NCBI GenBank assembly: GCA_000091205.1 | Contig: AP006492.2 | From: Cyanidioschyzon merolae | Taxonomy: Eukaryota | Length of the DNA stretch: 64,000 bases | Strand: one strand, 5' to 3' | Shown here: one piece after another, positions 52,967 to 54,842 of the stretch | How the letters are laid out: the number at the start of each line of letters is the position of its first letter | Position numbering within the stretch: the stretch's first letter is position 1 | The notes under the pieces: generated by a model | Told to the model about the DNA's origin: nothing | Databases searched by the model: none | Seen by the model: only the letters and a program-made list of their open reading frames with translations | Made by a program: the position numbers and the translations under genes

Positions 52967-53799
52967 ACTTCGGTTCTATATCAAGCATCTGTTTAGGGTT
53001 CCTGGTGTTCGGACGAACTGCCGATGTACGGCGTTTCGTTTCAGGCACGTACGCTAGGCATCCGAGCACGGATACCGGATGCCGTCGGGACGATCGCTGA
53101 CGCCGTGGTCGTGCGGGGCTGGCCGAGTCGCAGACGCTCCGAGCCGCCGTCTCGAATATCGCATGGCGGATGCGTCGCTTGCGATCGCAGCTGCGGCTTG
53201 CGTCCCTGCGCATCTGCACCACCGTGGAGCGTTCAGCAACATGGACGCCACATGATGCGCTTCCGGCGTCGAGAGTGCGAGCTGCACTCATGCCGAGCCC
53301 CAGAATTCCACTCAGTTCCCTATGGGGACTTTGGTGCGCACGAGCGAGCACCCTGCGAGTACCATTTCCAGCGGGCGCGCATGTTCGCAGCGGGTGCGGT
53401 GCTGCCGTCTTGGCCCCCAACCCGTGCAGCGCTGCGCTGTATGGGGCGTGGTAGGCACGCACAGCAGGCTCGGTGCTCGGAGGATCGCTTGAACGAACCG
53501 TTATCCCCAAATGGGCAAGTCGAGGTCATGGCTGGTTGTACCTGGAGTCATGGGGCGACATCACGGATTCATTCCTCGATACTGGTAAAAATCGCGCACC
53601 CGGTGATCCCTGGTCAGGTTCGAAATGATGGCGCCCCATGTGAAAAAACAGGCACGGCACGGCACGGCACGGCACGGCAAAGGCGCCAGCAACGCTGGCC
53701 GCGCATCAGGCTGGCGAATCGCCATCGCATTGCACGGATCGGCGCCGCTTCACCAACCACTTTATATATTGCTCATCGCGATACCATTACATCTGAGCA

Positions 53800-53893
53800 T
53801 CGTCATATGCGTAAGCATGCGCAGGTTCGAATCCTGCCGTCTGCATCTCCTATCGCAGACGTGGCCGAGCGGTCCAAGGCGTGACGTTCAGGT
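53800..53893 (+). tRNA. Circularly permuted tRNA-Leu(CAG) gene. The 3' half (positions 38/39-73; 53800-53845) precedes the 5' half (positions 1-38; 53855-53893), separated by the 9-nt linker tctcctatc.
   Basis: - 3' half: anticodon stem 3' strand CGTCA (53801-05), long variable arm TATGCGTAAGCATGC, T-stem GCAGG / loop TTCGAAT / CCTGC, acceptor 3' strand CGTCTGC (53838-44), discriminator A.
- 5' half: acceptor GCAGACG (53855-61), which is the perfect complement of CGTCTGC; then TG, D-arm GCC-GAGCGGTCCAA-GGC, G, anticodon stem TGACG (the complement of CGTCA), loop TTCAGGT with anticodon CAG.
- Flanks: a TATA-like ttatatatt at 53762-53770 upstream and a T7 run at 53898-53904 downstream. Confidence 0.8.
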
Positions 53894-54104
53894 GAGCTTT
53901 TTTTCTCGTCAGTTGTTCAATGCACCGGTTCATAGTTAATGAATTGCGCTTGTGAGTTACTCGCGCTTTCTACGGTTTTTATTATCGGTTTTGCGGCGTA
54001 GAATCTCATCAAGCGACACAAAACTCCAAGCAGAGGCGTCGTACCGAGGATAGCGACGACGCGACTCCTGGTGCGGGTTCAGGGGCGAACCTGCTGCGCG
54101 CGCC

Positions 54105-54842
54105 ATGACGAGTCCCGATCCAGCCTGGCACTGGTCAGGGAAACGTCCTACGGGGAGCGTGCTGGTAGTCCCGAACGCGCTTGCGGCCGCCTATGTTCCC
54201 CAGATGGTCTGCGATCTGCTCATAGAGAACCTCGCACTGCCGCACTTGGGCTCCGTCCAAGTGCCCCAGGTGCTTCCGTTTGCGGGTCGCGGGAGGTATA
54301 GCCACACTGATTTTCACTTTCTGAGCCCTGTCGATATGTATGCGTGCCAGGATCTGGCTGTCGTGCAGCATAGGTCTCCGATCGCACGAGGGCGCTCACG
54401 AGAACACGCGTTCCTCCTGTGGAACACCTTCGGCAGATATAGTCGACTTGTGCTGGTTCTGAACAGCATCAGTGCCGTTGCACGTGAATCAGATCGTGCC
54501 CTTAGCGCGCCGCTCGGAAGCGTTTGGTATCTGGCCAATGCACCAGGGCGTGCTTGGGTGGAAGCGCATGCTCCCGAATGGATCGCGCTCAACGAAACGG
54601 ATGTGCTACCAGCGTATTGGCCTCTAGCTCGAGCGAGAGGCTGGATTGCAGCGCTGTTTGAGGCCGCCGCCGCCACGGTTCCTCTCGTCGTCCCGCACGT
54701 GTTCGTGCACGCCGGAGATAACCGTCATGTGGCGGCTAGGCTCGTGGAATCGCTCGCTCGCTGCATGTCTTGGTCATTGGAGGAATGCAAGGAACCGCCG
54801 AGCTGGGCGATCGGTTTCGATGCGAACGGTAACGGAACCTAG
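54105..54842 (+). CDS. Proteasome assembly chaperone 2 (PAC2/PSMG2)-like protein
   Basis: GSVLVVPNALAAAYVPQMVCDLLIENLALPHLGSVQVPQVLPFAG parallels human PSMG2 FTLLMPAVSVGNVGQLAMDLIISTLNMSKIGYFYTDCLVPMVG. Downstream SRLVLVLNSIS and VHAGDNRHVAARLVESL also have PAC2 counterparts. Confidence 0.45.
   Translation: MTSPDPAWHWSGKRPTGSVLVVPNALAAAYVPQMVCDLLIENLALPHLGSVQVPQVLPFAGRGRYSHTDFHFLSPVDMYACQDLAVVQHRSPIARGRSREHAFLLWNTFGRYSRLVLVLNSISAVARESDRALSAPLGSVWYLANAPGRAWVEAHAPEWIALNETDVLPAYWPLARARGWIAALFEAAAATVPLVVPHVFVHAGDNRHVAARLVESLARCMSWSLEECKEPPSWAIGFDANGNGT

Follow-up and report, generated by a model that had tools for sequence, protein, structure and literature searches.

The permuted tRNA-Leu(CAG) gene of Cyanidioschyzon merolae was reportedly first described by Soma and colleagues in Science in 2007. 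The nuclear genome of C. merolae contains only 43 tRNA genes, including 11 permuted ones, and these have been called a sufficient anticodon repertoire (PMC3978253; PMC3728597). In most of the permuted genes, the 3' half is preceded within 50 bp by a TATA-like sequence, and the 5' half is followed by a T-stretch (PMC3978253). The intervening regions are devoid of promoter or terminator signals (PMC3978253), and their published lengths range from 7 to 74 nt (PMC3978253; PMC3728597). Furthermore, C. merolae lacks recognizable TFIIIC A/B-box binding subunits (PMC3978253; PMC3728597). For the permuted class in this organism, RT-PCR and sequencing have revealed precursors, circular intermediates that retain the linker, and mature tRNAs ending in CCA (PMC3978253; PMC3728597). 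Northern blots and aminoacylation assays have been reported as well, and tRNAs of the class are aminoacylated (PMC3978253). Among the 11 genes tabulated by Soma (2014) is a Leu(CAG) gene of type II (37/38), with a 9-bp intervening sequence and no intron (PMC3978253, Table 1).

Permuted tRNA genes have also been described in green algae (Ostreococcus and Micromonas) and in the nucleomorph of Bigelowiella natans (Maruyama et al., 2010; PMC3978253). Like the C. merolae Leu(CAG) gene, these are mostly of type II (37/38). They have intervening sequences of 5-64 bp, over-represent class II tRNAs (Leu, Ser), and yield a detectable circular intermediate (PMC3978253). However, they belong to other lineages with other sets of tRNAs, and their Leu genes encode Leu(TAA) rather than Leu(CAG) (PMC3978253). 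In the archaeon Thermofilum pendens, the 3' half is likewise located upstream of the 5' half, and bulge-helix-bulge (BHB)-type processing has been proposed (Chan et al., 2011; PMC3218864). On the other hand, the T. pendens junction falls within the T loop (59/60), CCA is gene-encoded, the intervening sequence is only 1-7 nt, introns are present at 37/38, and a circular intermediate has not been demonstrated (PMC3978253).

Ordinary tRNA genes with an intron at 37/38 share with the permuted gene the positions of cleavage, the splicing endonuclease, and the ligase. The leader and trailer of the permuted gene can be regarded as an intron turned inside out: the order of the exons is reversed, and ligation circularizes the RNA, whereas in the ordinary gene it joins two linear exons. 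RNase P and tRNase Z then open an acceptor loop, rather than trimming free ends.

The locus analyzed here lies in a stretch of 64 kb (the window; G+C content of 56.6%), in which four ORFs translate to exact, full-length matches of C. merolae 10D proteins, all encoded on a single contig of 839,707 bp (locus tags CMJ...). It is almost certainly the published, and thus already known, nuclear permuted tRNA-Leu(CAG) gene of C. merolae 10D, as its organism, anticodon, junction, 9-nt linker, and lack of an intron all agree with the tabulated entry (PMC3978253). The upstream TATA-like box and downstream T-stretch are alike as well, and no difference was found in this comparison, which was made at the level of the table. 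The original prediction, which had been made from the bare sequence, had already recognized a permuted gene of the C. merolae type.

Organization of the tRNA-Leu(CAG) unit

The unit spans positions 53761-53904 and reads, on the plus strand, in the order TATA-like box, tRNA positions 38-73, 9-nt linker, tRNA positions 1-37, 5-nt trailer, and T7 run (Table 1). All of the parts that had been named beforehand were located: the T arm, the 3' acceptor strand with its discriminator, the linker, the fully complementary 5' acceptor strand, the D and anticodon arms, the CGTCA strand and long variable arm directly 5' of the T arm, and the two signals that bracket the unit. This arrangement has the features of the class of Soma et al. 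(2007). Both halves are on the plus strand with the 3' half placed 5' of the 5' half, a short linker joins the acceptor ends, and the rejoined halves give a canonical cloverleaf. There is also a TATA-like sequence within about 50 bp on the 5' side and a T-stretch on the 3' side, as is usual for the class (PMC3978253).

Table 1. Features of the permuted tRNA-Leu(CAG) unit and of the surrounding genes (positions are those of the window)
Feature	Position	Strand	Description	Basis
BAM80226.1			Probable helicase	Exact full-length match to window ORF
BAM80227.1			CYME_CMJ090C	Exact full-length match to window ORF
BAM80233.1			Proline--tRNA ligase	Exact full-length match to window ORF
BAM80241.1			Tic22-like; ends ~830 nt upstream of tRNA unit	Exact full-length match
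TATA-like box	53761-53770	+	TTTATATATT; 30-39 nt 5' of 3' half	Read directly
Leader segment of junction motif	53792-53799	+	5' limit inferred	Base-pair list, constrained fold
Leader, h' part	53792-53793	+	UC	
Leader, helix H part	53794-53797	+	UGAG	
Leader, bulge part	53798-53799	+	CA, first 2 nt of 3-nt bulge CA/U38	
3' half of tRNA-Leu(CAG)	53800-53845	+	tRNA positions 38-73, 46 nt	Sequence reading, ARAGORN, numbering check
3' anticodon-stem strand	53801-53805	+	CGTCA	
Variable arm	53806-53820	+	Stem ATGC/GCAT, loop GTAA	
T arm	53821-53837	+	GCAGG-TTCGAAT-CCTGC, perfect	
3' acceptor strand	53838-53844	+	CGTCTGC	
Discriminator	53845	+	A	
Linker (intervening sequence)	53846-53854	+	TCTCCTATC, 9 nt; joins A73 to G1	
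5' half of tRNA-Leu(CAG)	53855-53892	+	tRNA positions 1-37, 38 nt	Sequence reading, ARAGORN, constrained fold, numbering check
5' acceptor strand	53855-53861	+	GCAGACG; 7/7 complementary to 3' acceptor strand	
D arm	53864-53880	+	Preceded by U8 and G9	
Anticodon-stem strand and loop	53882-53893	+	TGACG and TTCAGGT	
Trailer	53893-53897	+	UGAGC; T53893 is its first nucleotide	
T7 run	53898-53904	+	Directly after trailer	
PAC2 family match	54105-54842		Next real gene downstream of tRNA unit	

The 3' half comprises U38, the 3' strand of the anticodon stem, the long variable arm, the T arm, the 3' acceptor strand, and discriminator A73. The 5' half comprises the 5' acceptor strand, the D arm, the 5' strand of the anticodon stem, and U32, U33, C34, A35, G36, and G37. 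When the 5' half is placed before the 3' half, the resulting 84 nt are called by ARAGORN as tRNA-Leu(cag), in agreement with the type II tRNA that had been predicted. The rejoined molecule is a class II tRNA with a single complete cloverleaf, in which the halves neither overlap nor leave a nucleotide missing. Watson-Crick pairs occupy 20 of 21 stem positions (the exception being G/A at 13:22), and all of the conserved positions checked are present (U8, A14, G15:C48, G18G19, A21, U33, G37, G53:C61, T54T55C56, A58, and A73).

The TATA-like box is presumed to be the upstream promoter element of RNA polymerase III, and the T7 run its terminator. Approximately 30 nt of spacer and leader separate the box from T53800. 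Direct reading of the 9-nt linker reveals neither a T run nor a TATA sequence, and the linker is thus without an internal promoter or terminator. The sequences TGCTCA (53770-53775) and TGAGCA (53794-53799) are perfect inverted repeats, which would permit the leader to fold into a hairpin, provided that transcription starts far enough upstream. The GCTC within the first of these repeats could alternatively pair with GAGC of the trailer (53894-53897); the relevance of either pairing depends on the transcription start.

The unit is overlapped by a 286-aa ORF (53024-53884, plus strand), for which neither a Pfam family nor an identical entry in the protein collection was found. In related metagenome contigs, prokaryote-style gene callers gave the corresponding ORF a length of either 251 or 301 aa. 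These inconsistent lengths, together with the lack of a family or an exact protein, indicate that the ORF, which lies in GC-rich DNA, is probably spurious.

Splice junction and proposed maturation

The junction was analyzed by enforcing the cloverleaf and leaving the ends free to fold. In the constrained fold, a 3-nt bulge, C53798-A53799-U53800, adjoins the anticodon stem (h), and beyond it is a 4-bp helix (H) between UGAG of the leader and U32-U33-C34-A35 (53887-53890). The opposite strand contains a second 3-nt bulge, G36-G37-U53893 (GG/U), and then either a 2-bp h' helix (GA at 53894-53895 with UC at 53792-53793) or, as the alternative, continuous pairing of these bases with the leader. When the constraint is removed, the minimum-free-energy fold favors a continuous 9-bp helix between the leader and the anticodon loop, and thermodynamics alone is therefore no proof of a BHB motif. 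As the strict form is weak on one side, with only 2 bp in h', and the minimum-free-energy helix is continuous, the BHB-like motif that the leader and trailer can form is probably of the relaxed or borderline strict kind. Modeled in this manner, the locus would have the BHB or relaxed-BHB element that is characteristic of permuted tRNA genes, with one weak side.

In the usual geometry of a BHB motif, each bulge is cleaved after its second nucleotide. Applied to the two bulges of the constrained fold, this rule would put one cut after G37 and the other before U38, which corresponds to a 37/38 junction. The original prediction had left the junction ambiguous between 37/38 and 38/39; its 37/38 option stands, and the ambiguity is considered resolved on the basis of the modeled BHB geometry and the published gene (PMC3978253). 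The 3' half would accordingly start at T53800 and the 5' half end at G53892. It had also been predicted that the 5' part ends after the loop TTCAGGT. The loop is indeed present, but its last nucleotide, T53893, is assigned here to the trailer.

A maturation pathway can be proposed from the literature on this class of genes. RNA polymerase III would initiate, with no involvement of TFIIIC, downstream of the TATA-like box, and would transcribe a single linear RNA composed of leader, 3' half, 9-nt linker, 5' half, and trailer, stopping at the T run. This precursor would fold into a cloverleaf whose acceptor stem is closed by the linker, with the leader and trailer pairing beside the anticodon stem to create the BHB-like motif. 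The tRNA-splicing endonuclease would then cleave behind G37 and in front of U38, leaving ends that the tRNA ligase would join into a 93-nt circular RNA. RNase P and tRNase Z would cut the 9-nt linker out of the acceptor loop, and addition of CCA would yield an ordinary 87-nt tRNA-Leu(CAG).

Variation among Cyanidioschyzon-like relatives

Relatives of the locus were sought by scanning metagenomes for the pattern GGTTCGAATCCTGC-N16-46-TGGCCGAGCGGTC and by looking up contigs with a gene for a close variant of the Tic22-like protein. Eight hot-spring metagenome contigs (L004, L009, L011, and L013-L017; from JGI, ENA, and Logan) have the same gene neighborhood, and their halves and linker are identical to those of the window. 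These contigs represent Cyanidioschyzon-like environmental variants; they are syntenic with the region, and share with it proteins that cluster together at 90% identity. Of the 12 loci found with the pattern, nine (L001-L003, L005-L008, L010, and L012) are no permuted genes. Instead, they are bacterial tandem pairs of colinear tRNA genes, in which the first tRNA is complete and the second has a D arm of the Leu/Ser type.

Alignment of the 6 distinct sequence versions has 51 variable columns among 1661, a divergence of approximately 3%. None of the variable columns falls in the halves, the linker, the junction-forming leader, or the TATA-like box. Near the unit, the variable columns are 53753, 53781, 53782, 53784, 53785, 53790, and 53901. 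The segment just 5' of the junction leader (53781-53790) therefore varies, and the leader itself is invariant. At 53901, a C in five of the contigs (L009 and L013-L016) changes the T7 run to TTTCTTT, and the presumed RNA polymerase III terminator is therefore not strictly conserved, although the tRNA is. The pentanucleotide GGCAC is repeated approximately six times at 53651-53680, about 120 nt upstream of the unit. The bin that contains this microsatellite (53650-53699) accounts for 10 of the 51 variable columns, and strains thus appear to differ in the length of the repeat.

The invariance of the gene suggests constraint, for which it is weak evidence because the relatives have diverged by only about 3%; by our estimate, some 3 changes would be expected in 93 nt, compared with 0 seen. 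Conservation as proof of function was set aside for the same reason, as the contigs are too closely related. The pattern of variation is also consistent with a transcription start near 53790-53793. It is rather doubtful that the substitutions at 53781-53790 could help to map this start, and that TTTCTTT would imply a termination by RNA polymerase III that tolerates or bypasses a broken T-stretch. If true, such a reading of the start site and terminator would refine a known system in a minor way, and would not amount to a new one.

Detection, rival explanations, and significance

It had been anticipated that a linear tRNA finder would miss this gene. ARAGORN identified no tRNA genes in the unrearranged 64-kb window, whether introns were allowed or not, and Rfam returned no matches at the gathering score. 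A relaxed Rfam search recovered the T arm alone, as an RF00005 fragment at 53817-53837 that scored 14.6 bits against a cut-off of 29 bits. Neither ARAGORN nor the linear RF00005 model thus describes a colinear tRNA gene at the locus. For a permutation-aware scan, of the kind that the original prediction had proposed as its check, each 150-nt segment of the window was duplicated in tandem and submitted to ARAGORN with introns allowed. The tRNA-Leu(CAG) locus was called in 7 consecutive overlapping segments, and there was one other call in the 64 kb. The latter, a "tRNA-Ala(tgc)" with a 64-nt intron in segment 51541-51690 (minus strand), was found at a single offset with a poor cloverleaf, and was rejected as an artefact. 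Its source is a repetitive, GCGCTGCGCG-like stretch of 77% GC located 5' of the Tic22-like gene.

In favor of a chance resemblance to parts of a tRNA in GC-rich DNA, such isolated false calls were seen both in the real window and in dinucleotide-preserving shuffles of it, 20 of which gave 0-1 isolated calls each (2 in total). Consecutive runs, however, never occurred in the shuffles, and when the exact geometry of the rejoining was slid along both strands of the window, the tRNA-Leu(CAG) locus was the sole recovery. These two controls refute chance, which is further opposed by the near-complete stem pairing, by the presence of every conserved position checked, and by the match to a published gene (PMC3978253); its probability is negligible.

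Of the two other rival explanations, the less improbable is that the locus is a dead relic, consisting of two truncated fragments left by the tandem duplication of an ordinary tRNA-Leu gene and expressing no functional tRNA. One of the published scenarios for the origin of permuted genes involves such a duplication with subsequent trimming (PMC3978253), and the arrangement by itself is how a relic of this kind would initially look. Yet the fragments sum to exactly one complete tRNA, the promoter-like and terminator-like signals flank the whole unit rather than each fragment, a splicing motif can form from the leader and trailer, and the sequence is invariant in the related contigs. In addition, expressed and aminoacylated tRNAs have been reported from the permuted genes of C. 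merolae, whose small tRNA gene set is described as sufficient in anticodons (PMC3978253; PMC3728597). A relic is therefore very unlikely. Less probable still is a split tRNA of the Nanoarchaeum equitans type, whose halves come from separate loci, each with its own promoter, and are joined in trans. Complete halves could in principle pair through their acceptor and anticodon stems, but only 9 nt lie between them, which leaves no space for a terminator or a second promoter, and the unit as a whole has one TATA-like box before it and one T run behind it. In C. merolae, the intervening regions contain no such signals, and split tRNAs have not been found (PMC3978253). The reading as a permuted gene, transcribed as one unit, is thus strongly preferred, and none of the observations contradicts it.

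The locus adds nothing new to biology, as the maturation of permuted tRNA genes through circular RNA was a notable discovery of 2007. It does serve as a positive control, in which a gene missed by both ARAGORN and Rfam was reconstructed correctly from raw sequence. The tandem-duplication approach with ARAGORN produced no robust false positives in 64 kb, and is applicable to genomes that have not yet been searched for permuted tRNA genes. The Cyanidioschyzon-like contigs, in turn, could serve for a population-level study of disrupted tRNA genes.
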